In this document: one piece after another, positions 30,003 through 57,210 of the stretch
Layout of the letters: each line of letters opens with the position of its first letter
How positions within the stretch are numbered: the first letter of the stretch is position 1
From: Gemmatimonas sp.
GTDB taxonomy: Bacteria > Gemmatimonadota > Gemmatimonadetes > Gemmatimonadales > Gemmatimonadaceae
NCBI RefSeq assembly: GCF_021298855.1
Contig: NZ_JAJTHI010000045.1
Span: 10,709 to 74,708 of the forward strand
Length of the DNA: 64,000 nt
Direction of reading: 5' to 3'
Notes under the pieces: generated by a model
Told to the model about the DNA's origin: nothing
The model's input: the letters and a program-made list of their open reading frames with translations, nothing else
Databases searched by the model: none
Translations under genes and position numbers: made by a program

Positions 30003-31319
30003 TCAGCTCAGCGACTGACCGACCACATACAGCAGCAGTCCCACCAGGCCGCCCACCAGCGTGCCGTTGATGCGGATGAACTGCAGATCGCGACCGATCT
30101 GCAGTTCGATCTTGCGCGAGGTCGCGTCGGCGTCCCACGCCGCCACCGTCGTGGCGATCAGCGCGGCCACCTCCTCGCGCGCCTGCTCCACCGAGTACGT
30201 CACGAGCTCCACCACCCAGCCGTTCACCTTGTCGGCCAGAGCGGGATCGGCGAGTACCTTCTCGCCCAGCCCCGCCAACCACCGTTCCAGCTGATCGGGC
30301 TCGGCTTCCGTCTCGGTGGCCAACCGTTCGGCGTACTGCGCCAGACGCGACTTCACGTCGCCCCACACTTCGCGTGAGAATTCGGCCACGCCGGGGTGGT
30401 CGAGCAGCTCCAGCTTGATCTGCTCGGCACGGGCAATGGTCGCGGGATTCTCGCGCAGATTCTGCACGAAGCGCTCGACGGCCTCGTCGTAGCGCTTCCG
30501 CAGCGGGTGCGCCGGATCGGCGGCCACGGCCACGAGCGTCGCCTCCACACCACTCACGATCTTGTCCCCCAACCGGTTCTCCACGGCGCCCGGCACCCAC
30601 CACGGGCTCTCCTGCCGGATGCGCGCACGGATCATCTCCTCGTTCTCGTCGAGGAAACGCGCGGCGAGCCGCAGAGCATCGTCGAGCAGCGTCTGATGCC
30701 GTCCGTCCGCGGTGAGGAGCTCGAACGTCTTGGCGGCCAGCGGCGCCGCCTGCAGACGCCGCAACCGGGCCACGATGCCGCGGTCCACAAGCGTCTGCAC
30801 CTCCTCGTCGCGCAGCACTCCCACCGCACCGGACAGACCGTGCGCGGCGGCGCGCGCCAGGCGGCGGCTGTTCTCCGGCCGGGCCACCCACGCCGCCGCC
30901 CGCTCCCCCAGCTTCATGGCGCCCAGCTTGCTCGCCACGACCTCGCGCGTGAGGAAGTTGCGTTGCACGAAGTTGCCCAGCGCCGTCCCGATGCGATCCT
31001 TGCGCGCGGGCACGATGGCGGTGTGCGGAATGGGAATGCCCAGCGGGTGGCGAAAGAGGGCGGTCACCGCGAACCAGTCGGCAATGCCCCCCACCATGGC
31101 CGCTTCAGCGAAGGCGCGCAGATAGCCCAGCCACGGATACTGCGCCTCGTACACGCGGGCCGCGACGAACACCGCAGCCACCACCACCAGCATCGTGGTG
31201 GCGGCCCGCTTCATTTGCGCGAGGCGCACGCGACGCACTTCGTCGTCGGGGGTGATGCGCAGCGCCGCCGGCAGGGTGTGGTCGGCCGTGGGGGGGCCCA
31301 GCGGAGCAGGATTGGTCAT
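30003..31319 (-). CDS. DUF445 family membrane protein
   Basis: EAAMVGGIADWFAVTALFRHPLGIPIPHTAIVP..DLQFIRINGTLVGG. Confidence 0.92.
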   Translation of the reverse strand: MTNPAPLGPPTADHTLPAALRITPDDEVRRVRLAQMKRAATTMLVVVAAVFVAARVYEAQYPWLGYLRAFAEAAMVGGIADWFAVTALFRHPLGIPIPHTAIVPARKDRIGTALGNFVQRNFLTREVVASKLGAMKLGERAAAWVARPENSRRLARAAAHGLSGAVGVLRDEEVQTLVDRGIVARLRRLQAAPLAAKTFELLTADGRHQTLLDDALRLAARFLDENEEMIRARIRQESPWWVPGAVENRLGDKIVSGVEATLVAVAADPAHPLRKRYDEAVERFVQNLRENPATIARAEQIKLELLDHPGVAEFSREVWGDVKSRLAQYAERLATETEAEPDQLERWLAGLGEKVLADPALADKVNGWVVELVTYSVEQAREEVAALIATTVAAWDADATSRKIELQIGRDLQFIRINGTLVGGLVGLLLYVVGQSLS

Positions 31320-31351
31320 GGGCACGTCATGCCCGTCCCCGGTCGGTGTGG

Positions 31352-32671
31352 TCAGCGGCCGCCGGCCGGGGGGTCCACCACGATGCGGGACGGATCGATG
31401 GGGGCCGAAACGGCGGCAGGAAGGTCCATGTAGACCACTACGGGTGTTCCGTTCACCTGTTCCACGCTCAACGTCACCGTGCGCGCGCCGCGCACCGGTG
31501 TGGCGGCCACCTCGTAGCGGCGCGTCGTACTTCCGCCCGTGACTTCCGGCTTGGGCAGCGCATAGCGCCGACGCGCCGCGTCGCCCATGGCATCCAGAAA
31601 GTCCGCCGCATCCGCCGGGGAATCCCACACGGAGGCCCAGACGAGGGCGTTGCCCTGCGCCGTCCGAATGACGGCATAGCGGTCTCCGTCCACGCCGGTG
31701 GCGGCGCGCCGTGCGAGCTCGTCGTCCTTGATGTGCTGCACCAGCGCCAGCCGCGTTTCGAACTCGCCGAAGGTGTTGCTGTAGATCACCTCTCCCGCAC
31801 GCGGCGCCGGCAAGGTGACCCGCGCGGGCAGGTCACGCCCGGATGCCCCGCCACCGAAGTACGCGGAGTCGCTGAGGATCTGCTTGGTGGAGACCGGCAG
31901 GTCGGTCAGGAGTTCCTTCTCCGGCCGCACGTTGATGAAGCGCCGTACGAAGTCAGCCCCGCCGAGGTAGGGGAAGAGCAACCCCTCACGCACGGCGCGC
32001 GGCGCCGACGCGAAGACCGGCATCCCCACCGAGCCCTCGCGGATCATGTCCCGGATGCGATCCCAGCCACCAGGCGCCTTGAGCATGGGCCCGGCATTGG
32101 CGTCGATGCGCAACTGCATGAACACCGCCTGGCCTTCCAGCACCGCCTGCGCCGCCACCTGGCGATCCCCGTCGTCCACCTGGGCCTGAATGGAATCGAC
32201 CTTCACATACTGGTCCTGCAAGGCGTGCACCAGTTCGTGCGAGACCGTCTGCTTGAGCAGCGCGTCGGGCGCCCCTTCCACCACGTAGAGCACCTTGGTG
32301 GCCGGGTCGTAATACCCTACGATCTGCTCCTCCAGCAGACGTTGCAGCAGCACGCCCAGCTGCATCGTGTCGGGCACAAGGCCGAGCAGCTTGTACGCGG
32401 CCTCCTGTCCGGCCACTTGCGTGCGCCCACGCTCGCTCTCGAGCTGCTTGCGCACGAACGCCGCCACCTCGTCGCGCGAGCGCTGCTCCACCTTGGGCGG
32501 CGTCTTGAAGGGCAGCCCCATTTCCCGCTCGATCTTGGGCACGAACTCGGCCACGAGGTCGGCATAGGGGCCCTCACCGTTCTTCGGCGTGTCGCCGCAG
32601 GCCGCGACGACGGAGGCAACCAGGACGAACGCCGCCGCACGGATGCGCGGCAGGCGGAGCGAATGGGTCAT
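31352..32671 (-). CDS. Lipoprotein, putative zinc metallopeptidase (HExxH)
   Basis: VVAAC lipobox; GYYDP, SHELVHALQDQ, AVLEGQA, LFPYLGG. Confidence 0.75.
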   Translation of the reverse strand: MTHSLRLPRIRAAAFVLVASVVAACGDTPKNGEGPYADLVAEFVPKIEREMGLPFKTPPKVEQRSRDEVAAFVRKQLESERGRTQVAGQEAAYKLLGLVPDTMQLGVLLQRLLEEQIVGYYDPATKVLYVVEGAPDALLKQTVSHELVHALQDQYVKVDSIQAQVDDGDRQVAAQAVLEGQAVFMQLRIDANAGPMLKAPGGWDRIRDMIREGSVGMPVFASAPRAVREGLLFPYLGGADFVRRFINVRPEKELLTDLPVSTKQILSDSAYFGGGASGRDLPARVTLPAPRAGEVIYSNTFGEFETRLALVQHIKDDELARRAATGVDGDRYAVIRTAQGNALVWASVWDSPADAADFLDAMGDAARRRYALPKPEVTGGSTTRRYEVAATPVRGARTVTLSVEQVNGTPVVVYMDLPAAVSAPIDPSRIVVDPPAGGR

Positions 32672-37291: not shown

Positions 37292-37527
37292 GGCGTACCG
37301 TCGCTCAGCCGCTCGCGCGCCGTCACGACCCGGAAGATCGCGCCGCCCACCACTGGCGTGTCGGCGGCGATGGGCAGTCCCCGACTGTCGGTGAGGCGCA
37401 GCCGTCCGCTTGCCAGGCCGTCCGCATCGTCGGGGAAAAGGGCGCGCACCGCATCGAGTGCCACCGTTCCGGCGGGCACGGACACGCCACGCTCGTTCAC
37501 GAACACACGGACATCCGTGTTGGACAT
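37288..37527 (-). CDS. Small (79 aa) cysteine-free beta-grasp/ubiquitin-like hypothetical protein
   Basis: MSNTDVRVFVNERGVSVPAGTVALDAV..RLTDSRG..GGAIFRVV; coupled on both sides (TGATG and ATGA). Confidence 0.75.
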   Translation of the reverse strand: MSNTDVRVFVNERGVSVPAGTVALDAVRALFPDDADGLASGRLRLTDSRGLPIAADTPVVGGAIFRVVTARERLSDGTP

Positions 37528-40500
37528 CAATTGCTCCCTGCCGTGATGGGACGCACCCGCTCGGTGGGGTCGCCACGCACCGGTTGCGGCTGTTGCGAGA
37601 GGAAGGCGCGTACGGCGTCGATATCGCGCACCGTGAGAAACTCGGTGGCGATGGCTCCGGCCAGCTGCCCGCTGAAGTCGTTCTCCACCATGAAATCGTT
37701 CATGGCCACCGTGTAGATCCGATCGGGCTCGATGGGGCGCCCTGCCGCGTCGAGCGCGCGCACGACCCGCGCCCCGCGTGGACGGGCCGGGTCGTATTCG
37801 ACGGACACTCCGCTCACGTGTGCGTCCGGCCGACCGCGATCCACCGTGGCTTCGAGCAGCTGCAGCAGCGTACGCCCGCGCAGGCGGACGCGTGCCACGA
37901 GATTGCCGAACGGCGTCACGTAGTGGATCCCGCCGTAGTTCAGTGGGCCGGCGGCAAGGTCGGCCCGCACGCCGCCATTGTTCCACATCCCCACGTCGCT
38001 TCCGGCAGCAGCGCGGACAGCGTCGGCCAGCATGTTCCCCACCGGGTTCTGCGCACCGGCCCGCCGCATGGGCTCGGCCAACGTGGCCACCGGCTGCTGC
38101 AATTGCGGACGTACGCGCTCCATGGCCATGCGCACGATCGAATCGACCTCCGGCACAGCCTCGGCCACCTCATCACCGCGCACCGGGCGTACCTCGGTGC
38201 GTGCCGGTCCGCCACCCACCGGCACGTCCACCACCACGATGCCACGGCCACTCGATGTGGGTTCGACGGCAGGCATGCCGTTGAAGTCGAGCGAGAGGTT
38301 CACATGGGCGTGTCCCATGACGTACACGTCGGGGCGATCCGCCCCCATCTCGCCCAGGCGCCGGCCAATATCGATGCCGGCACCGCTGCAGTCGGTGGGG
38401 CGATCGCGCTCACAGCGGCCGCCGTCGTGAATGACCGCCACCACGACCTGTGCGCCCGCCGCGCGCAACGCGCGGGTGCGCTCGACGAACACCGGGACCG
38501 GGTCGAGGAAGGTGAGCGGCCCCACCTTGCGGCGGCTGGCGGTGTTGGGGGTGTGCGTTCCGGCGGCGCCCACGATGCCGATTCGCACCGTGCCACGCGT
38601 GACGATCGTGTCGGCACGCAGCCAGGCGGGCCGCTCGCCGTCGGGGCCACGCACGTTCGCGCCCAAGATGGCGTGGCGCAGCTCGCGCATGCGCGCGCGC
38701 AGCGTGTCCTGACCGAAGTCGAATTCATGATTGCCCAGCGCACCGGCGGCCACGTCGAGGCGGTTCACCACGTCCACGGTGGGCCGTCCGCCGTGCCAGT
38801 CGGAGGCCGGCGAGCCGGTGAACAGGTCGCCGGCATCGATCACCACATGCTGGCAGGCGGGGGGCTGGCATTCCCGTTGGGCGCGCCGAATGGCCGCCGA
38901 CAGCGCCACGGCGCCCCCCACGGGGGCGTTGCCCTGATCGAACTGCGGACGCAACGCCGCGTGAAAATCGCTCATGGCGATCACCCGCACGGTCGGCGAT
39001 CCGGAAGGGGCGCTGGCCGCGCGCCCCGGCTGCTGCTCGGCGTAGGCCTGCTCGCGGGCCGACGCCGGTTCCAACGTCCAGTTTCGCTGCGCGTAGGCGG
39101 CGGGATCGAGCGTGCCGGCCCGGCGCACTTCATCGATGACCAGCTGCCGGATGTCGAGGTCCCGGTCGTAGACCAGCGGCGCGCCGGCCAACATGGAGAA
39201 CCCGCCGCCGCCCCCCTGCCGGTAATTGTTGAGGGCCATCGTGAAGCTGTCGGTGGGGAGCACCTCGCGCCCGCGTACCTGCAGACGGGTGATGCGCTGG
39301 CCGACCGGGCGCCGCAGGTCGATCGTGTAGTCCGCGCCACTCACGACATCGAAGTTGTAGCCCGGTACCGACGGATCGAGGATGCCCCCGGCGGCCCGGC
39401 CATCGGCCCCCACGGTGCGATAGTATCGCGCCGCATGTTCGAGGAAGTCCCGGAGCTGCGCGCCGGTGATGCGCACGGCGCGGAGCGTATTGTCGTAGGG
39501 ATACAGCCGCGACAGCTCGGCCTGGGTGATGGCGCCCGTATCGAGCGCCGCCTCCAGGGAAAAGGCGGCCGTGGCCGACAGCTCGGCGCCGGTGGTGCGT
39601 CGCATGACCTCGTTGACGAGGTCCGTGATGGGGGCGTCGGTGACGCGCGCGCTGTCGGCGCGCCACGCCACGCTCGTACGCCCCACCGGCTCATTGACCC
39701 ACGCAACGGTGGCCTCGTGTGTGCTGCGCGCCGCCGCCAGCACGTCGGGGTGCTCGCGATGCCCCGCCACCCGCACGGCGCGCCCGGTACGCGCCACCAC
39801 GCTCCAGCGGCCCTGGCGCCGCTCGAGGGTGAGCGTGCCCAGCCCCACCGACCCCGCCCAGTTGCGGGGCTGCATGACGAGCGCCCCGTTGATGGTGGAA
39901 TCCACCAGCTCGCGGTGCGAGTGCCCGTAGACCACGACGTCGATGCCGTCGATTTCCCGTGGAATGCGTGCCGCCACGTTTTCGGACGGGAGCCCCGTGG
40001 CGACCGTGTCGTAGCTCGCCGGTTCGTTCAACCCGGAGTGCAGCAGCACCAGCACGACATCGGCCTTCGCGCGGCGCGCCTCCTGCACACGCTGACGCAC
40101 CGCCGGCACGATATCGGTGACCGTCAGCCCCGCGGCCTTGAGATGTTCGCGATCCCACACCATGGAGCCGGGGGTCGTCCCCCCGATGATGGCCACCCGC
40201 ACGCCGCGTCGCGTGACCATGGTATACGGGGCCACCCAGGGTTTCCCCTGCGCGTCCAGCACGTTGGCCGCCACGAACGGAAAGCCCGCCTGCGCGATCG
40301 CCTTCTGCAGCAGCGGCACGCCGTAGTTGAACTCGTGGTTCCCCAGCACGGCGGCATCGTAGCGCATGACGTTCATGGCGGCGATGACGGGGTGCACCGG
40401 CGTGGGCCGAACGCGCGCCGCCACGTAGAGCAGCGGGTTGCCCTGCAGGATGTCGCCCCCTTCCACGAGCACGACGCCGTCGGGATTGGCCCGCCGGGCG

Positions 40501-40730
40501 GAGTCGACAATGGTGGCGGCCGCCGCCAGGGAGTGCGCCGGGTCGGCGCGCCCCGCGTAGTAGTCCCACCCACGCAACCGCCCGTGCACGTCGGTAGTGG
40601 CGGCAATCGTGAGCTCGACGCGGCGCGGGGCCCGTTGCGCCGCCAGCGGCTCGATCATCAACGCGGCCAGCGAGGCCAGCCCCCCGGCGGGCAGCAGTAC
40701 GGCACACAGCCAAGACAATGGACGTCCCAT
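37527..40730 (-). CDS. Secreted tandem 2',3'-cyclic-nucleotide phosphodiesterase / 5'-nucleotidase (two metallophosphoesterase + two 5'-NT C-domains)
   Basis: Module 1: TTDVHG, GGDILQG, GNHEFNYG, GHSH, LYPYDN. Module 2: SDFHA, AGDLFTG, GNHEFDFG, GHAH, NNGGVR, VTPFGN. Confidence 0.92.
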   Translation of the reverse strand: MGRPLSWLCAVLLPAGGLASLAALMIEPLAAQRAPRRVELTIAATTDVHGRLRGWDYYAGRADPAHSLAAAATIVDSARRANPDGVVLVEGGDILQGNPLLYVAARVRPTPVHPVIAAMNVMRYDAAVLGNHEFNYGVPLLQKAIAQAGFPFVAANVLDAQGKPWVAPYTMVTRRGVRVAIIGGTTPGSMVWDREHLKAAGLTVTDIVPAVRQRVQEARRAKADVVLVLLHSGLNEPASYDTVATGLPSENVAARIPREIDGIDVVVYGHSHRELVDSTINGALVMQPRNWAGSVGLGTLTLERRQGRWSVVARTGRAVRVAGHREHPDVLAAARSTHEATVAWVNEPVGRTSVAWRADSARVTDAPITDLVNEVMRRTTGAELSATAAFSLEAALDTGAITQAELSRLYPYDNTLRAVRITGAQLRDFLEHAARYYRTVGADGRAAGGILDPSVPGYNFDVVSGADYTIDLRRPVGQRITRLQVRGREVLPTDSFTMALNNYRQGGGGGFSMLAGAPLVYDRDLDIRQLVIDEVRRAGTLDPAAYAQRNWTLEPASAREQAYAEQQPGRAASAPSGSPTVRVIAMSDFHAALRPQFDQGNAPVGGAVALSAAIRRAQRECQPPACQHVVIDAGDLFTGSPASDWHGGRPTVDVVNRLDVAAGALGNHEFDFGQDTLRARMRELRHAILGANVRGPDGERPAWLRADTIVTRGTVRIGIVGAAGTHTPNTASRRKVGPLTFLDPVPVFVERTRALRAAGAQVVVAVIHDGGRCERDRPTDCSGAGIDIGRRLGEMGADRPDVYVMGHAHVNLSLDFNGMPAVEPTSSGRGIVVVDVPVGGGPARTEVRPVRGDEVAEAVPEVDSIVRMAMERVRPQLQQPVATLAEPMRRAGAQNPVGNMLADAVRAAAGSDVGMWNNGGVRADLAAGPLNYGGIHYVTPFGNLVARVRLRGRTLLQLLEATVDRGRPDAHVSGVSVEYDPARPRGARVVRALDAAGRPIEPDRIYTVAMNDFMVENDFSGQLAGAIATEFLTVRDIDAVRAFLSQQPQPVRGDPTERVRPITAGSN

Positions 40731-40867
40731 CAGGGAATGCTAGTCGGTCCCCCGGGTCGTTTGGAGTGGCGTACGCGGCGGTCCGAATCCGTCCTTGCCG
40801 GGTCCCCCCTGCCGCCGCGAACTTCCCGTGGCACGGTCCGATCGGCCCCGGTTGCCGATACCTACTC

Positions 40868-40910
40868 GTTACACCGCCGTAACCGTCCGGAAACGACGGC
40901 GGTCCATGCT
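40868..40910 (+). promoter_or_regulatory. Pho-box-like promoter of udk-phoB-phoR
   Basis: GTTAC (40868), GTAAC (40879), GAAAC (40890) at 11-bp spacing, then CATGCT at 40905. Confidence 0.6.
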
Positions 40911-40947
40911 TGAGACATCCCTCGTGGACGACCCGGTCACTCCGCTC

Positions 40948-41622
40948 ATGAAACCGCTCATCATCGGCATCGCGGGCGGCACCGGCTCGGGGAAATCGAC
41001 GGTGGCTCGCAAGGTGGCAGAAGCCCTCCCCAACGCCTCCGTCGCCTTCCTGGAGATGGACGCGTATTACCGGGATTTCCGGCACCTGACCCTGCAGCAG
41101 CTGCATCACGTCAACTGGGATCATCCCGATGCCTTCGACGTGGAGTTGCTCTCGACTCACCTCGAGGCGCTCGCCCGCGGCGAAGCGGTGGACATGCCGG
41201 TGTACGAGTTTGCCACGCACTCCCGCAGCAGTCGCACCCGGCGCATCGAGCCGGCGGACGTCGTCGTGATCGACGGCATCCTGCTCCTGTCGGACCCCAA
41301 CGTCCGGGCGCAGTGCGATGTGAAGGTGTTCGTCGATGCCGATCCGGATATCCGCCTCATTCGCCGCATCCGACGCGATACGGCCGTGCGCGGCCGCACG
41401 CTCGAATCGGTGCTCGACCAGTATCTCACGACCGTGCAGCCGATGCATCTGCAGTTCGTCGAACCCAGCAAGCGGTACGCCGACGTCATCGTCCCACGGG
41501 GAGGGAGCAACACGGTCGCGATCGAGATGATCGTGGCCAAGATCCAGCGTCGGCTGCACACCCGCGCCCAGTCGCGGGTGCCGCGCGCCGACGCCGAACC
41601 GGCCGACGCCGGCACCTACTGA
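40948..41622 (+). CDS. udk: Uridine kinase
   Basis: IIGIAGGTGSGKST, MDAYY, NWDHPDAFD, IDGIL, RLIRRIRRD, FVEPSKRYADVIVP. Confidence 0.96.
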   Translation: MKPLIIGIAGGTGSGKSTVARKVAEALPNASVAFLEMDAYYRDFRHLTLQQLHHVNWDHPDAFDVELLSTHLEALARGEAVDMPVYEFATHSRSSRTRRIEPADVVVIDGILLLSDPNVRAQCDVKVFVDADPDIRLIRRIRRDTAVRGRTLESVLDQYLTTVQPMHLQFVEPSKRYADVIVPRGGSNTVAIEMIVAKIQRRLHTRAQSRVPRADAEPADAGTY

Positions 41623-41629
41623 CCCGTGC

Positions 41630-42352
41630 ATGAACCCTGCTCCGAGCACCGCTGATCGCATTCTCGTCGTGGACGACGAAACCGAGATCGTCGCCCTGGT
41701 GGCTTACCACCTGGCGAAAACCGGTTATCGCGTCTCCACGGCGTCGTCGGGGCAGGACGCACTCGAGTTGGCGCGTCGTGAGCGCCCGTCGCTCATCGTG
41801 CTCGACCTCATGCTGCCGGGCATGTCGGGGTTCGACGTGCTCGAGCAACTGCGCCTCGACGAGAGTACGCGCGACATCGCCGTCATCATGCTCACGGCCC
41901 GCCGGGAAGAACCTGATCGCATCCGCGGCCTGTCGCTGGGTGCCGATGACTATCTCACCAAACCGTTCTCGCCGGCCGAACTGGTGCTGCGGGTGGCGGC
42001 CATTCTGCGCCGGACCGGGTCCGTGCAGCCGTCCGGCAACACCGATGCCCTGGTCATTGGGCCGCTGCACATCGACCGGGCGGCCATGACGGTGAACGTG
42101 AGCGGCGAGGCCGTGGAGCTTACCCCCACCGAGTTCAAGCTGCTCCTCACCCTGGCCGAGCGCCGCGGGCGCGTCCAGGGACGCGGGCACCTGCTGGAAA
42201 CCGTGTGGGAAGCCGCCCCGGACATTCAGACCCGCACGGTCGACATGCACGTGCAGCGACTGCGCACCAAGCTGGGCACCGCCGGCGACCTCATCGAGAC
42301 CGTGCGCGGATTCGGCTACCGCCTGCGCGCCGCGGCGCCGCGCGCCTACTGA
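41630..42352 (+). CDS. phoB: OmpR-family response regulator, PhoB-like
   Basis: ILVVDDE, LDLMLPG, GADDYLTKPFS, RTVDMHVQRLRTKLG; phosphate gene context. Confidence 0.85.
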   Translation: MNPAPSTADRILVVDDETEIVALVAYHLAKTGYRVSTASSGQDALELARRERPSLIVLDLMLPGMSGFDVLEQLRLDESTRDIAVIMLTARREEPDRIRGLSLGADDYLTKPFSPAELVLRVAAILRRTGSVQPSGNTDALVIGPLHIDRAAMTVNVSGEAVELTPTEFKLLLTLAERRGRVQGRGHLLETVWEAAPDIQTRTVDMHVQRLRTKLGTAGDLIETVRGFGYRLRAAAPRAY

Positions 42353-43792
42353 GTGCGGCTCACCCAGCGACTGCTGCTGCAGAGCGCCGTGGTCGCCACG
42401 CTACTGGTGGCGATCATTCTGGGGGCTGTGGAGTGGCGGGTACGGCACCGGCTGGAGCTGCAGGATACCGTCGCCGTGGGGATGGCCCAACCGGCCGACC
42501 GCGCCAGCCTGGAGGCGGCCGCCGATGAGGCGCTGTTGCGGGCCATCCGCAACGACGTGCTCATTGCCAGTGGCATCGCGCTCATCGTGGCCCTGCTGTT
42601 GGCGCGCGGACTCGCCGGGCAGGTGACGCGCCCCATGCAGGAGTTGCGCGACATGGCGCAGGATCTGGCCGGCGGCGATCTCACCGCCCGACCGTCGCGG
42701 TCCATCAGTGGCGGCGAGGTGGGGGACCTGGCCGATTCGCTGCGCCGCGTGGCCGAGCAGATGGAAACGCGCCTCTGGGAGATGCAGTCGGAGGAAGCGC
42801 TCCTGGTGGCGCTTACGGAGTCGCTCAACGAAGGCGTCGTGGCCGTGGACGCGCGCAAGCGGGTGGTGCGCATCAATGAGCGCGGACGTCAGCTGCTCAA
42901 CTTGCGTCAGCCGCTCCCCTTCCCCGCCAACGAGCTGCCACAGGAACCGCAGCTGCAGGAAGCGTTGCAGCTGGTGTTGTCGGGGGCCCCGCCCATCGTG
43001 CGCGAAATCCAGCTCGCCGGTCGCACGCTGGCGCTCACGGTACGCGCTCTGAGTGGCGGGGGCGCCGTGTTTGCCATGTACGACCTCACCCCGGTTCGCC
43101 GGCTCGAGACGGTGCGCAGCGACTTCGTGGCCAATGTGTCCCACGAGCTGCGCACGCCGCTCACGATCATTGGCGGATTCGTGGAGACGCTGCAGGACGA
43201 CGATGTCCCGCCCGACCTGCGGCGGCAGTTCCTGGGCATGGCGGAGGCCAACGTGCAGCGCATGCAGCGCATCGTCGATGACCTGCTCGACCTCTCCCGC
43301 ATCGAGTCGGGAGGATGGCGTCCGGCGCCAATGGAGCTGCGCGTCGAGGAGCTCGCCGCGGATGCCCTCGCCCCGTTGCAGTCCCGCGCCGATGACAAGG
43401 GAGTATCACTGGGCATCGACGTGGCCCCCAACGCCCGGTTCATCCGGTGCGATCCCACCGCGGCGGGACAGATACTGGTGAATCTCGCCGAGAACGCCCT
43501 GCGCCACACGGCCGCGGGGCGGGTGGTCGTGTTTGCTGAACGCGAGGGGGACGGGGTATGGATGGGGGTGCACGATACCGGCATGGGGATCGGTCCCGAA
43601 CATCTGCCGCGCATCTTCGAGCGGTTCTACCGCGCCGATCCCGGTCGGTCCCGCGAGGCCGGCGGCACGGGCCTCGGCCTCTCCATCGTGCGCCACCTGG
43701 CAGAGGCGCACCACGGACGCGTCCGGGCTGAAAGCACGGTGGGGGTGGGCACGACCATTGCCGTCTGGCTCCCCACCCCACTGCCCGCCTGA
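42353..43792 (+). CDS. phoR: Sensor histidine kinase, PhoR-like (2 TM, HAMP, PAS, HisKA, HATPase)
   Basis: DFVANVSHELRTPLT, NLAENA, DTGMGI, FERFYR, GGTGLGL. Confidence 0.85.
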   Translation: MRLTQRLLLQSAVVATLLVAIILGAVEWRVRHRLELQDTVAVGMAQPADRASLEAAADEALLRAIRNDVLIASGIALIVALLLARGLAGQVTRPMQELRDMAQDLAGGDLTARPSRSISGGEVGDLADSLRRVAEQMETRLWEMQSEEALLVALTESLNEGVVAVDARKRVVRINERGRQLLNLRQPLPFPANELPQEPQLQEALQLVLSGAPPIVREIQLAGRTLALTVRALSGGGAVFAMYDLTPVRRLETVRSDFVANVSHELRTPLTIIGGFVETLQDDDVPPDLRRQFLGMAEANVQRMQRIVDDLLDLSRIESGGWRPAPMELRVEELAADALAPLQSRADDKGVSLGIDVAPNARFIRCDPTAAGQILVNLAENALRHTAAGRVVVFAEREGDGVWMGVHDTGMGIGPEHLPRIFERFYRADPGRSREAGGTGLGLSIVRHLAEAHHGRVRAESTVGVGTTIAVWLPTPLPA

Positions 43793-43845
43793 CCGGACCG
43801 CTGGCGACCTCGCGCCCCGCCGCGACGCCGCCAGCGCGGCCGCGT

Positions 43846-44691
43846 TCAGGCCGATTCCGCCTGCCGTCTGGCGCGGCGACCGGCAAACGCTTCAGCGATG
43901 AGCCGCGGCAGCATGACCCCGGCCGGCCCTTCGATGGGCAGGATGCTGGGGCCCGAGCGCTGCCCCTCCATGGTGGGATTCACCACAATGACCGTGGCCC
44001 CGTGCGTCGCCGAGATCCACGGCAGCGAGGCTGCCGGTTCGACGATGTTGGAGGTGCCCACCGAGATGAACACGTCACACGCCACGGCGGCGTTGCGGGC
44101 GGCCTCGAAGGGGGGCATGGGGAGCGTTTCCCCGAACCACACCACATCGGGGCGCAGGAGCGCCCCGCACTGCGGACAGGTCGGCACGTCGGCGCGCTGC
44201 TCGTCGCTGACCGCCACCGAGCCGGCGCACCCCGCGCTGCACCGCGCGTGCATGAGGGAGCCGTGCAACCGAACCACGTCGCGACTACCGGCCCGCTCGT
44301 GGAGGTCGTCAACGTTCTGGGTGACCAGCGTACAGTGGGCGACTCGTGACGCGAGCGTGACGAGCGCCACATGCGCCGGGTTGGGCTGTGCCGCCCGAAC
44401 CATGGCGCGCCGCGCCGCATACCATTGCCAGACCCGTGTGGGGTGGGCCGCGAAGGCGTCAGGCGTGGCCAGCTCCTGCGGGCTGAACTGCGCCCAGGTG
44501 CCGGTCTGCGCTTCGCGAAACGTGGGGATACCGCTTTCGGCCGACACGCCGGCGCCCGTGAGCACGCACACGTGCTCGGCCGCGCGAAGCGCCTTGGCGG
44601 CGACCGTGAGCGCCTCGGCGCGTGTCTGGGGATCGGTTGGCGGCGGGGAGGCGACCCGGCGCCGCTGAAGATTGGGATCAGTCGGGACCAT
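43846..44691 (-). CDS. cobB: NAD-dependent protein deacylase (class III sirtuin)
   Basis: LTGAGVSAESGIPTFR, WYAARR (YxxR), TQNVDDLHERAG, LHGS, two Cys pairs, RPDVVWFGE. Confidence 0.93.
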   Translation of the reverse strand: MVPTDPNLQRRRVASPPPTDPQTRAEALTVAAKALRAAEHVCVLTGAGVSAESGIPTFREAQTGTWAQFSPQELATPDAFAAHPTRVWQWYAARRAMVRAAQPNPAHVALVTLASRVAHCTLVTQNVDDLHERAGSRDVVRLHGSLMHARCSAGCAGSVAVSDEQRADVPTCPQCGALLRPDVVWFGETLPMPPFEAARNAAVACDVFISVGTSNIVEPAASLPWISATHGATVIVVNPTMEGQRSGPSILPIEGPAGVMLPRLIAEAFAGRRARRQAESA

Positions 44692-44781
44692 ACTCGGGCG
44701 ACAATACTGCGCGGACCTGTCTCGCACCAGATCGCCCGCCCGCGGATACCGCCCCATCGCGCTGACCGGGTCCGGACCTGG

Positions 44782-44850
44782 CTGTCACGACCGGCCGTGA
44801 CCAATTCGTTGCACGACTGTCGAATGATCGAAACCTGAGTCACGGAGCTT
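44782..44850 (+). promoter_or_regulatory. Pho-box-like promoter of the TonB-dependent receptor
   Basis: CTGTCAC at 44782; GTGAC/GTTGC/GTCGA/GAAAC at 44797/44808/44819/44830; GAGCTT at 44845. Confidence 0.5.
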
Positions 44851-44913
44851 GCTCAGTGTCCGGAGCGCACCACGCGCCTCGCGACCTGTCTTCCTCAAAG
44901 CTCCGAATATCCC

Positions 44914-47709
44914 ATGCGGATTTCCGTACACGCGCTATACCGTGCCGCGCGTCGCGCGATGCTGGCGACCACGGTGGCCGTCGTTCCCGCTGCAGGGTCC
45001 GTTCTTCTTCTTCTTCCTGCCTCTGCCCCCGCGCAGGAGGCGGCGACCGGCAAGATCACCGGGCGCATCGTGGATGCCGTCACCGGCCAGCCGATTCCTG
45101 CGGCGCAGATTCAGGTGGTGGGCACCGCCTTCGGCACGCAGACGGCGGTCGATGGCCGGTACACCCTGCTGCGCGTGCCCGCTGGCACCCTCACGCTGCA
45201 GGTGCGCCGCATCGGCTACGGCCCCAAGACCGTCACCGGACTGCTGCTGCCGGCGAACGGCGCGCTGGAGCAGGACATCTCGCTGCGCAGTGCCGACGTG
45301 CAGCTCGCGGCGGTCAGTGTCACGGCCACCAAGGAAAAGGGGTCGGTGAACGACGCCCTCAACGCGCAGAAGAACGCCACGAACGTGGTGAACGCCATCA
45401 CCGCCGAACAGATCGCGCGCAGCCCCGACGGCGACGCGGCCGCGGCCGCGCAGCGCGTGAGCGGCGTGACGGTGCAGGACGGCAAGTACCTGCAGGTGCG
45501 CGGCCTCTCCGAGCGCTATACCACGGCGTCGCTGAACGGGGCGCGCATTCCGAGTCCGGAGCCCGAGCGCAAGGTCGTGCCGCTCGACCTGTTCCCGGCG
45601 AGCCTGCTGCAGGACGTCACCACGGCCAAGACCTTCACCCCCGACATGCCGGGTGACTTCGCGGGCGCCAACGTGAACATCCGCACCCGTGAGTTCCCCG
45701 CGCGCCGGCAGGTGAACTATTCCACGAGCTTCGGCTTCGGTGATCGCGTGCTGGGGCAGACCCTGCCCTTTGCCCCGCGCGCCGGCGGCGAGCTGTTCGG
45801 GAATGCGTCGGCGAACCGCCGCATGCCGGCGGCCATCGCCAGCGCGAACTTCCTGGGGAATGTGTCGCAGTCCCAGTACAACCAGATGGCGCGTCAGCAG
45901 CGCAACGTGTGGAGCCCGTCGCTCCGCAATGGCGGGGTGAACGGCTCGTTCGGCATGTCCACCGGCGGCAACAACATCCTGGGCAAGCGTGTCGGGTATG
46001 TCCTGAGCGGCAACTACGGCTACAGTGAGGAAGTGCGCGCCGACGAGCGCTATGCCATTGGCAACCAGGGCGCGAACAACACGGTCGTGCCCCTCACCGA
46101 AGTGCGCGGGCAGACGGGGCGCGCCAGCGCGTCGTGGGGCGGCATCGCCAACCTGTCGACGCTCGTGGGGCGCAACTCGCGCCTCGCCCTCAACACGACG
46201 GTCACCCGCAGCGCCGACAACGAGGCGCGGACCGACCGCGGCTTCGACGAAAACCTGAACGACAGCATTCAGCGCACCACCCTGCGCTACGTCGAACGCG
46301 GGGTGGCCACCGTAACCGGATCGGGCGAGCACCAGCTGAGTGATCGCAACCGCACCGCCTGGGCCGTGACGTTCGGCCAGACGGATCGGCGCGAGCCCGA
46401 CCGCTCCGATGTGGTGTATGCGCGCACCCCCGAGGGGCCGTATCAGATTCTGGCGTCGCTCGATGGCGCCCGTCGCCTCTATTTCGACCTGCAGGAGAAC
46501 AACGTCACCGGCCAGGTCGATCATACGATCAATCTGGGCGAAGTGGCGAAGCAGAACACGCTCAAGGTGGGCGCCTACCTGCGCACCACCGATCGCACCG
46601 CCGACGCCCCCATCTTCGCCTTCATCAGCCGCGCCGGCGAAAGCGTGGTGCGTCAGACGCCCGATGTGATCTTCGGCGAGGCCCAGGCGTGTGACAACTG
46701 CGCCCTCATCAACGTGCAGCCCATCGGACAGGCCGGCTCCTACCTGGCGAGCGATCGCACGGCGGCCGGCTATCTCATGTCCGATATCGGCCTCGGGTCG
46801 CGGGTGCGCATGATCGCGGGCGCGCGGCTCGAGCAGGCGCGCATCACCGTGGATGCCTCCACCCAGGGCGGGTTCACCACCAGCGCGGTGCTCGACAACA
46901 CCGACGTGCTCCCCTCGCTGCTGCTCAACACGCAGCTCTCGTCCACGCAGAATCTGCGCTTCGGCATCACGCGCACGCTGGCGCGCCCGGAGTACCGCGA
47001 GCTCGCGCCGGTGACCTTCCGCGACGTGCTGGGCGGCGTGAGCGTCACCGGCAACGCCGCGCTGGTGCGGTCACTCATCGACAACGTGGACCTGCGCTGG
47101 GAGATGTTCCCCAATCCCGGCGAAGTCCTCAGTGTGGGCGTGTTCGCCAAGCGCTTCGATCGTCCGATCGAACGTCTCGAGCAGGCCACCTCGGGCGCGT
47201 ACCAGGCGCGTTTCCAGAATGCGCTCAGCGCCACCAACGTGGGTGTGGAGCTCGAGGCCCGCAAGCAGCTGGGAGTCCTTGGCTCGTGGGGCGAGGCCTT
47301 CACCGCCTTTGGCAACGTGACGCTCATGCAGTCGAACGTGGAACTCGACCCCACTGGCGGCCTCACGGTAACCGACCAGAGCCGCCGCCTCGTGGGTCAG
47401 GCGCCGTACGTGATCAATACGGGGCTCACGTACTCGAACATGAGTGGCAACACGAACGCCACGATTCTGTACAACGTGGTGGGCGAACGCATCACGGCGG
47501 CGGGCGTGGTGCCCCTCCCCAACATCGTGGAAAAGCCGCGCCACCTGCTCGACCTGTCGCTGCGGTTCCCCGTGCGCGGCAACCTCTCGGCCCGCATGGA
47601 TGCCCGCAACCTCCTGGACGCCCGCTACCGCTTCATGCAGGGCAATCTGGAGCGGGAGGGATGGAATGCCGGCCGCGTCATCTCGATGGGGCTGAGCTGG
47701 CGGCAGTAG
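44914..47709 (+). CDS. TonB-dependent outer membrane receptor (931 aa)
   Basis: Signal peptide, carboxypeptidase-regulatory-like domain, plug (RVSGVTV..VRGLSERY..VPLDLFP..GDFAG), barrel ending NLLDARY..GLSW. Confidence 0.93.
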   Translation: MRISVHALYRAARRAMLATTVAVVPAAGSVLLLLPASAPAQEAATGKITGRIVDAVTGQPIPAAQIQVVGTAFGTQTAVDGRYTLLRVPAGTLTLQVRRIGYGPKTVTGLLLPANGALEQDISLRSADVQLAAVSVTATKEKGSVNDALNAQKNATNVVNAITAEQIARSPDGDAAAAAQRVSGVTVQDGKYLQVRGLSERYTTASLNGARIPSPEPERKVVPLDLFPASLLQDVTTAKTFTPDMPGDFAGANVNIRTREFPARRQVNYSTSFGFGDRVLGQTLPFAPRAGGELFGNASANRRMPAAIASANFLGNVSQSQYNQMARQQRNVWSPSLRNGGVNGSFGMSTGGNNILGKRVGYVLSGNYGYSEEVRADERYAIGNQGANNTVVPLTEVRGQTGRASASWGGIANLSTLVGRNSRLALNTTVTRSADNEARTDRGFDENLNDSIQRTTLRYVERGVATVTGSGEHQLSDRNRTAWAVTFGQTDRREPDRSDVVYARTPEGPYQILASLDGARRLYFDLQENNVTGQVDHTINLGEVAKQNTLKVGAYLRTTDRTADAPIFAFISRAGESVVRQTPDVIFGEAQACDNCALINVQPIGQAGSYLASDRTAAGYLMSDIGLGSRVRMIAGARLEQARITVDASTQGGFTTSAVLDNTDVLPSLLLNTQLSSTQNLRFGITRTLARPEYRELAPVTFRDVLGGVSVTGNAALVRSLIDNVDLRWEMFPNPGEVLSVGVFAKRFDRPIERLEQATSGAYQARFQNALSATNVGVELEARKQLGVLGSWGEAFTAFGNVTLMQSNVELDPTGGLTVTDQSRRLVGQAPYVINTGLTYSNMSGNTNATILYNVVGERITAAGVVPLPNIVEKPRHLLDLSLRFPVRGNLSARMDARNLLDARYRFMQGNLEREGWNAGRVISMGLSWRQ

Positions 47710-47736: not shown

Positions 47737-47790
47737 CATGACCCGGTTTCGGTGACACAACCGTGACCGGGTCATGACGTTTTGACGACA
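47737..47790. promoter_or_regulatory. Intercistronic hairpin overlapping four 11-bp-phased GAC repeats
   Basis: CATGACCCGG/CCGGGTCATG arms; GTGAC 47752, GTGAC 47763, ATGAC 47774, ACGAC 47785. Confidence 0.5.
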
Positions 47791-47861
47791 GAGCGCGCGC
47801 TCATTACGGAAGGGATCGTCAGGTCTCGACGATGCCGTTCACCATTCAATCACGACTCCCG

Positions 47862-55374: not shown

Positions 55375-56412
55375 TCAGAGAGGATTGAAGGCCGCGAGCA
55401 GCCAGTAGCTCAGTGCTGCCATGCCCGCACTCGCGGGGATGGTAATGACCCACGCCCACACAATGCGGCTGGCCAGCCCCCAGCGCACGGCCGACAGGCG
55501 ATTGGTGGCCCCCACCCCCACGATCGCGCCGGTGATCGTGTGGGTCGTGGACACGGGAATCCCCAGTTTGGAGGCGGCGAGAATGACCATCGCGCCGCCC
55601 GTTTCGGCACAGAAGCCGCCCACGGGGCGCAGTTTGGTGATGCGGGTCCCCATGGTGTGCACAATGCGCCAGCCACCGAAGAGCGTACCCAGCGAGATCA
55701 TGGTGTAGGCACTGAGCTCCACCCACACCGGGATGACGTCGAGCGACGTGACGTGGAAGTGCGCCAGCCACCCGGTCTGGTTGGCGAAGGTGGCCTGCGT
55801 GGCCACGAGCAGCCCCACGATGATGCCCATCGTCTTCTGGGCATCGTTGCCACCGTGCGCGAGCGAGAGCAGCGCCGAACTGGTGAGTTGCAGCACCCGG
55901 AACACCCTCTCCGCCTTCGTGTTGACCACGTTGCGGAAGAGGTTGAAGACCAGCACCATGAGCAGGAAGCCCATGAGCGCGCCGAGCATGGGCGAGAGCA
56001 CGATGGCCGAGAGCGTCTCGATCCACTTCTTGCCCCACAGCAGCGCCGAGAAGCCGACCTTGGCCACCGCGGCGCCGGCATAGCCGCCGATGAGGGCGTG
56101 GGAGGAGCTCGACGGAATGCCGAACCACCACGTGATGAGATTCCACGCAATGGCGCCCAGCAGCCCGCCCAGAATGACGTTGGCATCGACCACGTTGAGG
56201 TCGATGAAGCCGGCCGCGACCGACTTGGCCACGGCGGTGCCCACGAAGAACAGCGCGGAGAAGTTGAACACCGCCGCCCAGATGACGGCGGCGAGGGGAC
56301 TCAGCACGCGCGTGCCGACGATGGTGGCGATCGAGTTGGCGGAGTCGTGGAAGCCGTTGATGAAGTCGAAGGCCAACGCAACCGCGACGATGAAGATGAC
56401 GAAGGTGACCAC
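55375..56412 (-). CDS. pit: Inorganic phosphate transporter, PiT family
   Basis: GFHDSANSIAT, PSSSSHAL, AHGGNDAQK, PVSTTH. Confidence 0.96.
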   Translation of the reverse strand: MVTFVIFIVAVALAFDFINGFHDSANSIATIVGTRVLSPLAAVIWAAVFNFSALFFVGTAVAKSVAAGFIDLNVVDANVILGGLLGAIAWNLITWWFGIPSSSSHALIGGYAGAAVAKVGFSALLWGKKWIETLSAIVLSPMLGALMGFLLMVLVFNLFRNVVNTKAERVFRVLQLTSSALLSLAHGGNDAQKTMGIIVGLLVATQATFANQTGWLAHFHVTSLDVIPVWVELSAYTMISLGTLFGGWRIVHTMGTRITKLRPVGGFCAETGGAMVILAASKLGIPVSTTHTITGAIVGVGATNRLSAVRWGLASRIVWAWVITIPASAGMAALSYWLLAAFNPL

Positions 56413-56430: not shown

Positions 56431-57042
56431 TCAGCTGTTCTTGAGCGCGATGCTCTCGAGGGCGTTGGACACGTCCTCGCACTCGTCGATGGCTTCCTCG
56501 AGCGCATCGAAGATCTCCTTCCACTTCAGCACTTCGATTGCCGGCTCGTCATGTTCGAAGAGCGCGCCCACCGACTGCGCGTAGAGCACATCGCCCTCTT
56601 CCTCCAGCAGCTTGATGGCCCGGCCATGCTCCATCATGCGCTGCCGCTTGGAAATGTCCCCGACCGAGGCCAGGATCTCCTTGCCGCACCGCACCAGCAC
56701 ATCGGCCATCTGCACCCCGCCGTCGCGCGCCGTGGTCACCCGGAACATCACGACACGGCGCGAAGCCCCGTTGATGAGGTCAATGACGTTGTCGAGCCGC
56801 TTCGCGAGCAGGTGAATGTCTTCGCGATCGAGCGGCGTGACGAAGCTCGTGTCGATGCGCTGGTTGATGAGGTGCACGATGGCGTCCCCATCGGTCTCCA
56901 CCTTCTTGATCTGCACCGAGATCTGCGCCGCGTTGGCGGGATTCTCGAAGAGGGTGCGCAGCAACGTGGCCGCTTCGCCGATATGCACGGCAAGGCCGCG
57001 GAAGTGGTCGAAGAACGTTTCGTCTTTGGAGAAAAGCTTCAC
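56431..57042 (-). CDS. DUF47 (PhoU-like) Pit accessory protein
   Basis: ETDGD..SFVTPLDREDI..LDNVID, LEEEGD..LKWKEI..LEEAID. Confidence 0.92.
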   Translation of the reverse strand: MKLFSKDETFFDHFRGLAVHIGEAATLLRTLFENPANAAQISVQIKKVETDGDAIVHLINQRIDTSFVTPLDREDIHLLAKRLDNVIDLINGASRRVVMFRVTTARDGGVQMADVLVRCGKEILASVGDISKRQRMMEHGRAIKLLEEEGDVLYAQSVGALFEHDEPAIEVLKWKEIFDALEEAIDECEDVSNALESIALKNS

Positions 57043-57136
57043 GGCAGCGTGTTGGATTGAGGAGGTGTTCGGCGCCGCAGTGGGGACGGGCTCGGCAGAA
57101 GCTGCGGGCTTCGCGTCCCGGTGTGACTGCGGCTGT

Positions 57137-57210
57137 GTAACGAAAACGTCACCGAGGGAACTCCGCCATCCACCCGCTGGCCCCGATTTCCCTTGTTACA
57201 GAGGCGAGAC
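57137..57210 (-). promoter_or_regulatory. Two pairs of 11-bp-spaced GTNAC-like repeats upstream of DUF47-pit-ppk1
   Basis: GTAAC 57137 / GTCAC 57148; GTTAC 57195 / GAGAC 57206. Confidence 0.35.

Follow-up and report, generated by a model that had tools for sequence, protein, structure and literature searches.

A predicted PhoB-dependent promoter with two tandem Pho boxes upstream of the udk-phoB-phoR operon in Gemmatimonas sp.

The 64,000-nucleotide stretch of Gemmatimonas sp. DNA analysed here, referred to as the window, carries a three-gene operon on its forward strand. The first gene, udk (40948-41622), encodes a uridine kinase, which matches NF004018 with 288 bits (cut-off 180) and covers the full model from the ATG at 40948. 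The in-frame upstream starts GTG 40924 and ATG 40906 are probably unused, and one congener has a stop codon inside this upstream extension. The second gene (41630-42352) encodes an OmpR-family response regulator with Response_reg and Trans_reg_C domains, and the third (42353-43792) a PhoR-like histidine kinase of HAMP-PAS-HisKA-HATPase architecture, whose best NCBIfam matches, PnpS and phoR_proteo, are both below cut-off. A gap of 7 nt separates udk from the regulator gene, the kinase gene follows with 0 nt between them, and a search of 40600-44950 turned up no terminator-like site. The best-scoring NCBIfam family of the regulator is TIGR02154 (PhoB), though its 241 bits miss the equivalog cut-off of 296.2; thus, we call the protein PhoB-like and assign its function from context. 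Neither its recognition helix TRTVDMHVQRLRTKL nor its wing RGFGY is distinctive, both being generic within the family. The protein is the single close PhoB homolog in this genome, and a survey of 40 relatives gave one clear PhoB ortholog in each. A PhoB is usually paired with a PhoR-type kinase (PAS-HisKA-HATPase, with little periplasmic domain) and encoded among phosphate genes, and this regulator fits that pattern: the phosphate island in the window includes a TonB receptor (TBDR), two unknown genes, a PstS-like protein, Ppx, Ppk1, Pit, PhoU_div, and a nucleotidase. The latter, a secreted double 5'-nucleotidase/cyclic-nucleotide phosphodiesterase, is encoded divergently upstream of udk (37527-40742, minus strand), along with adenosine deaminase and purine nucleoside phosphorylase.

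Upstream of udk, an earlier note on this DNA had described GTTAC-N6-GTAAC-N6-GAAAC followed after 10 nt by CATGCT, and this string was confirmed letter for letter: GTTAC (40868-40872), ACCGCC, GTAAC (40879-40883), CGTCCG, GAAAC (40890-40894), GACGGCGGTC (10 nt), and CATGCT (40905-40910). The 11-bp spacing of the repeats also stands, but their number is four rather than three, since a further in-phase pentamer, GATAC, is located at 40857-40861. The four repeats start at 40857, 40868, 40879, and 40890, in exact 11-bp steps, which places them at -48, -37, -26, and -15 relative to the first base of CATGCT, the presumed -10 hexamer. GTWAC-N6-GTWAC has one match in the window against 0.02 expected (2 of 100 shuffled sequences contained a match), and it occurs in only two places in the 4.09-Mb genome (68.6% GC), the second being directly 5' of a Porin_O_P gene. 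Four GWWAC pentamers at 11-bp steps are found nowhere in the genome except in the udk array, with 2.7e-5 occurrences expected from the pentamer frequency.

In 20 congeners, udk also precedes the PhoB ortholog, and an alignment of the udk upstream regions shows four conserved cores of 7 bp with variable spacers between them. Conservation in these genomes is 0.85-0.95 for core columns, 0.50-0.83 for spacers, and 0.44 for the upstream flank. Unit 1 has the core CCGATAC (40855-40861; 95% column conservation), unit 2 TCGTTAC (40866-40872; 91%, with G, T, A, and C invariant), unit 3 CCGTAAC (40877-40883; 85%), and unit 4 CGGAAAC (40888-40894; 90%). The pattern among congeners is CCGATAC, yCGTTAC, yCGTGGC (CCGTAAC in the subclade of this genome), and CGGACAC (CGGAAAC here), from which the unit consensus YCG(T/A)NAC, or YCGWNAC, was derived. 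By definition, a PHO box is a pair of direct repeats of 11 nt in which 7 bases are conserved and 4 less so (PMC4415409); the udk upstream alignment shows this 7+4 architecture in four such repeats. The array stands in place of a -35 element, and its proximal unit ends about 10 bp before the -10, as assigned from sequence and conservation. Similar boxes are present at core Pho regulon genes, namely at pstS in two congeners and, in this genome, at Pit, the PstS-like-Ppx operon, porin O/P, and a pstS remnant. A hairpin formed by ACCGCCGT and ACGGCGGT (40873-40880 and 40896-40903) was also considered and was rejected, as the arms are placed differently in the other subclade when inspected by eye; such arms also follow from the near-palindromic CGTNACG core.

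The proposal that CATGCT serves as the -10 gained support from two sides. A40906 and T40911 are invariant in the 20-congener alignment, where the subclade of this genome has one extra base at the hexamer and its own T40910 fits the same hexamer. Furthermore, CATGCT, like GAGCTT, CAGCTT, and GAAGTT at the promoters described below, resembles the genome -10 consensus TAGCTT/TAGATT/TAGGCT, which was obtained from strand-asymmetric hexamers in about 950-1200 upstream regions and is preceded by a weak TTG 17 nt upstream. These observations support CATGCT (40905-40910) as the probable -10 of a PhoB-dependent promoter, P2, with transcription predicted to start near 40917, although the hexamer is a weak one. 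A strict sigma-70 plus terminator scan of 40600-44950 gave no match. A second T-rich block lies 5-6 nt beyond the hexamer (TAnTCAT in relatives, about 40911-40918 here) and is partly conserved. Taken as an alternative -10, this block would be in phase with the porin promoter, but it has neither the invariant A/T pair nor the shared +15 offset; it was rejected on these grounds and is retained as a caveat.

To look for further sites, we scanned this genome with a position matrix built only from the arrays of relatives, its own sequence being left out. With the four-unit sum, the udk site ranked first with 35.4 bits, and the next non-overlapping match, at the PAP2 phosphatase promoter, scored 21.6. 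The TBDR operon promoter (44795-44838) followed with 20.9, and the PhoU_div-Pit promoter (57154-57111, minus strand) was seventh with 18.2. The best two-unit matches added the porin promoter and the promoter of a pstS'-'pstB fusion relic (C18:52547). Except for the porin, these promoters have in common the geometry -48/-37/-26/-15 from an xAxxxT hexamer, which is CATGCT at udk, GAAGTT at PAP2, GAGCTT at TBDR, CAGCTT at Pit, and TAACGT at the pstS relic. As the -10 is not part of the matrix, its offset provides an independent test: xAxxxT stands at the exact offset in four of the seven top matches (binomial P about 1e-5), and among the top 30 matches the exact offset scores 6, versus 0-2 at neighbouring offsets. 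The two-unit pattern is not enriched genome-wide (53 matches vs 49 for the reversed control), and neither are GWNAC pairs or triples at 11-bp steps or the looser GWNAC-N4-YCGTKRC. The information content of the motif is low, and the case thus rests on phasing, -10 offset, and conservation.

The second Pho promoter in the window (44795-44850, plus strand; CCGTGAC, TCGTTGC, CTGTCGA, TCGAAAC, GAGCTT) is the third-best distinct four-unit match and would drive the genes for TBDR (44914), the two unknown proteins, the PstS-like protein, and Ppx. Its GAAAC starts at 44830 and its GAGCTT at 44845, so that the offset of +15 claimed for this promoter, equal to that at udk, proved correct. In 14 congeners, CCGTGAC-N4-TCGTTGC-N4-CCGTGGG-N4-TCGAAAC-CTGGGTCACG-GAGCTT is conserved, with 84-99% for the cores, 88% for the -10, and 41-52% for the flanks. 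The linker CTGGGTCACG itself (44835-44844), which holds another GTCAC, is 98% conserved in these genomes, far above the spacers, suggesting that an extra contact or a second factor may exist. The third Pho promoter (57099-57154, minus strand; CGGTGAC-GTTT-TCGTTAC, two degenerate units, CAGCTT) is the second-best two-unit match and would drive PhoU_div (56431-57042) and Pit (55375-56412), both named by Pfam; CGGTGAC-GCAA-TCGTTAC is kept amid diverged flanks in 18 of 19 congeners. At the PAP2 promoter, units 1, 2, and 4 and the A and T of the -10 are conserved in 18 congeners, with the ATG 7 nt later. Of the congener pstS promoters, one reads CTGTCAC-CATT-TCGTGAC-N10-TAGTTA-N7-ATG and the other CCGTGAC-TCAT-TCGTGAC with TATGCT at +48; canonical pstS is present in 3 of the 26 genomes of the genus. 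Inside the TBDR operon, 5' of a 588-aa gene, are three to four further phased Pho-like units (47750-47793, plus strand; CGGTGAC, CCGTGAC, TCATGAC, TGACGAC), with CTCATT and no -10 at the canonical offset.

The porin promoter is organized differently. In 7-9 congeners it shows TGTAAC-N6-GTCAC, the palindrome GTTACATGTAAC, and a clear TAGACT or TAGGCT -10 in a different phase. In this genome, six GTNAC pentamers are clustered within 56 bp (C49:31059-31125) 5' of the Porin_O_P gene (31170-32423), with TAGACT as -10, and the cluster is conserved in congeners. The pentamers lie at -13, -20, -33, -44, -53, and -64, unlike those of the other Pho promoters; the first is part of the 3' arm of a hairpin located after the upstream gene, and the palindrome reads GTGACATGTAAC here.

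Taken together, the architecture of the array, its conservation, and its recurrence at phosphate genes lead us to propose, with a probability of about 0.8, that the udk-phoB-phoR promoter is PhoB-dependent and positively autoregulated, with two tandem Pho boxes in the -35 region. The Pho-type, autoregulated promoter suggested in the earlier note is thus favoured by both the 20-congener footprint and the phosphate genes at which the box recurs. The 44-bp array (40855-40898) would represent two tandem Pho boxes made of four head-to-tail 11-bp units, each with a 7-bp core and 4 variable bases. Under low phosphate, PhoR would phosphorylate the PhoB-like regulator encoded two genes downstream of the array, and two PhoB dimers would occupy the array in head-to-tail order and bring RNA polymerase to the promoter, which lacks a -35 of its own. 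Transcription would then proceed from near 40917 through udk, phoB, and phoR. As it would read through both regulatory genes, the system would amplify itself, and a nucleoside-salvage kinase would be co-expressed with PhoBR. The same box and xAxxxT distance would define a small regulon comprising the TonB receptor-PstS-like-Ppx genes, PhoU_div-Pit, the PAP2 phosphatase, and, where present, pstS; a phosphate-selective porin would also belong to it, with a different phase.

Other explanations of the array have to be weighed against this one. Since GWWAC pairs at 11 bp are no commoner genome-wide than expected, the array might have no function and consist of A/T-containing pentamers that happen to cluster in a GC-rich intergenic region. 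The conservation pattern refutes this, as the cores but not the spacers are conserved across 20 genomes, the architecture recurs at other phosphate promoters, and the expected number of four-unit arrays is as small as given above; we regard the probability of a chance cluster as negligible. Equally negligible is the reading, raised in the earlier note, of GGAAAC (40889-40894) as the -35 of an ECF sigma-factor promoter. In its favour, ECF promoters typically carry a GGAAC-like -35 box, but the reading fails because the element is not conserved: 15 of the 20 congeners have GGACAC, GGTCAC, or GAATAC at this position. Moreover, the udk promoter has no CGT-type -10 at 16-17 nt after GGAAAC, and the element is simply one of four equally conserved phased units. 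An OmpR-family regulator other than the adjacent PhoB-like protein might bind the array, in which case the regulon would answer another signal. Points in its favour are that regulators throughout the OmpR/PhoB family use direct repeats spaced by 10-11 bp, that the PhoB match does not reach the equivalog cut-off, and that the recognition-helix residues are generic. We nevertheless find such a regulator improbable, because the regulon members point specifically to phosphate (pstS, Pit, porin O/P, Ppx, PAP2, phoBR), the core overlaps the canonical PhoB core, with a literal CTGTCAC at the pstS of a congener, similar boxes lie 45-70 nt 5' of phoB orthologs in Verrucomicrobia, and this genome has only one close PhoB homolog.

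The remaining alternative concerns a conventional promoter-like element, TTGCCG-N18-GAACTT (40795-40824, plus strand), located 35-60 bp 5' of the array. Its block CCGCGAA(C/G)TTCC is nearly invariant in the 20 congeners and CTTGCC is present in most of them, and the element is a candidate constitutive promoter, P1. In that case, two promoters would serve the operon, and the array, which lies about 25-65 nt past the expected P1 start, might also hinder P1 transcripts. One could thus view the array as a mainly negative or switch-like operator, at which bound PhoB blocks P1 with or without activating P2. The retention of the P1-like block in most of the 20 congeners and the position of the array between this block and udk are in line with such action on P1. 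On the other hand, no such upstream element accompanies the TBDR, Pit, PAP2, and pstS promoters, although their array-to-(-10) geometry is the same, which indicates activation at P2; in addition, P1 is a sequence match that the strict sigma-70 scan missed. A mainly negative or switch-like role therefore seems quite unlikely to us, and a PhoB-activated P2 remains the preferred reading. The interval from the P1-like element to the array contains a palindrome, CCGATCGG (40838-40845), that does not follow the 11-bp phase; its ATCGG part is kept in most congeners.

The proposed promoter resembles well-known Pho systems in several respects. As at the Escherichia coli Pho box promoters, its units of 11 bp are arranged head-to-tail, and 7 bases of each unit are conserved and 4 variable (PMC4415409). 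As in E. coli pstS, two tandem boxes with four units stand in place of the -35, and, as in the autoregulated E. coli phoBR promoter, the operon of the regulator is itself a predicted target. The distance of 10 nt from the end of the last 7-mer to the -10 is likewise that of the E. coli pstS promoter. The Gemmatimonas core shares C1, G3, T4, and A6 with the E. coli CTGTCAY, but its second base is C or G, not T, its fifth base is free (T/A/G/C), and its spacers are GC-rich rather than A/T-rich. Unlike E. coli phoBR, the operon starts with udk, in a genome without PhoU and intact PstSCAB, and is known here from sequence. The PhoP operators of Streptomyces coelicolor (core GTTCACC) likewise consist of 11-nt direct repeat units in a high-GC genome (PMC4415409), and there too a promoter has a variable number of units, which are of unequal strength (PMC4415409; see also PMC2275107). 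They differ in core sequence and in regulator subfamily, and they have been verified by binding assays.

The earlier note had envisaged a lineage-specific box with a consensus near GT(T/C/A/G)AC-N6. The box does have a consensus of its own, YCG(T/A)NAC, but it is only mildly lineage-specific, since it overlaps the canonical CTGTCAY and occurs 5' of phoB in Verrucomicrobia as well. We conclude that it is best described as a GC-adapted version of the canonical CTGTCAY box, not a strongly lineage-specific one. A similar box is found 5' of the phoB ortholog in another family of the same order. Upstream of phoB orthologs of three Verrucomicrobia (L037:2430-2445, L038:2432-2447, L039:2443-2458), TGTGAC-N6-GTCAC or GTAAC-N6-GTAAC is located 45-70 nt before the start, and the GTNAC-N6-GTNAC box at phoB may thus extend beyond Gemmatimonadota.

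This genome lacks PhoU and an intact PstSCAB. Outside the window, C18:52609-53517 is one 302-aa frame with the first ~98 residues of PstS (PBP_like_2) and the C-terminal two thirds of a PstB-type ABC ATPase, which looks like a deletion relic of pstSCAB. It keeps an intact Pho box promoter (CCGTGAC-CAAC-TCGTGAC ... TAACGT-N6-ATG), and its divergent neighbour encodes a secreted NPP phosphodiesterase; no footprint of this intergenic region was obtainable because synteny is not conserved in congeners. Canonical pstS of the type of the relic is found in only two other congeners. Neither this genome nor its closest relatives encode PhoU (PF01895), which is present in 13 of 26 congeners. PhoBR and Pho boxes thus persist here without Pst and PhoU, and phosphate might be sensed by another route, for example by way of PhoU_div-Pit or of the TonB receptor-PstS-like module, which are themselves predicted regulon members. 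It is tempting to speculate that the subclade lost PhoU and reduced PstSCAB to the pstS'-'pstB relic while keeping PhoBR and the Pho regulon, and that phosphate sensing became independent of Pst and PhoU, possibly along with a P1-blocking and P2-activating switch at the udk-phoBR array; as a whole, this scenario is tentative and rather unlikely.

The mechanism itself is textbook, and the same design recurs at the other phosphate genes of the genome; it is an ordinary design, here in Gemmatimonadota. A full-text literature search found no paper combining Gemmatimonadetes and Pho box, and a survey of the phylum only notes the presence of pstSCAB and phoRB (PMC10581226). For Gemmatimonadota, the consensus and promoters described here would be a first sequence-level description of the Pho box, along with a minimal Pho regulon. 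Members of this phylum are abundant in soil and wastewater and are known for polyphosphate accumulation. A simple rule, YCG(T/A)NAC units at -48, -37, -26, and -15 from xAxxxT, could be used to predict phosphate-starvation genes in metagenome-assembled genomes of the group, with the uncharacterised TonB receptor module and the PAP2 phosphatase among the predictable targets. The analysis also indicates that the canonical PhoB core and promoter geometry reach well beyond Proteobacteria.

A minor observation concerns the spacing between -10 hexamers and start codons. The divergent nucleotidase gene has a -10, TAGCAT (40742-40737), which is kept in at least two congeners and has no Pho unit at -15, -26, -37, or -48 by eye. 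This hexamer lies only 6 nt before the ATG, suggesting a leaderless mRNA. A -10 hexamer 6-7 nt before the ATG is likewise present at PAP2 (GAAGTT; C31:26933-26950) and at pstS in congeners (L181), and leaderless mRNAs seem to be common in this lineage.
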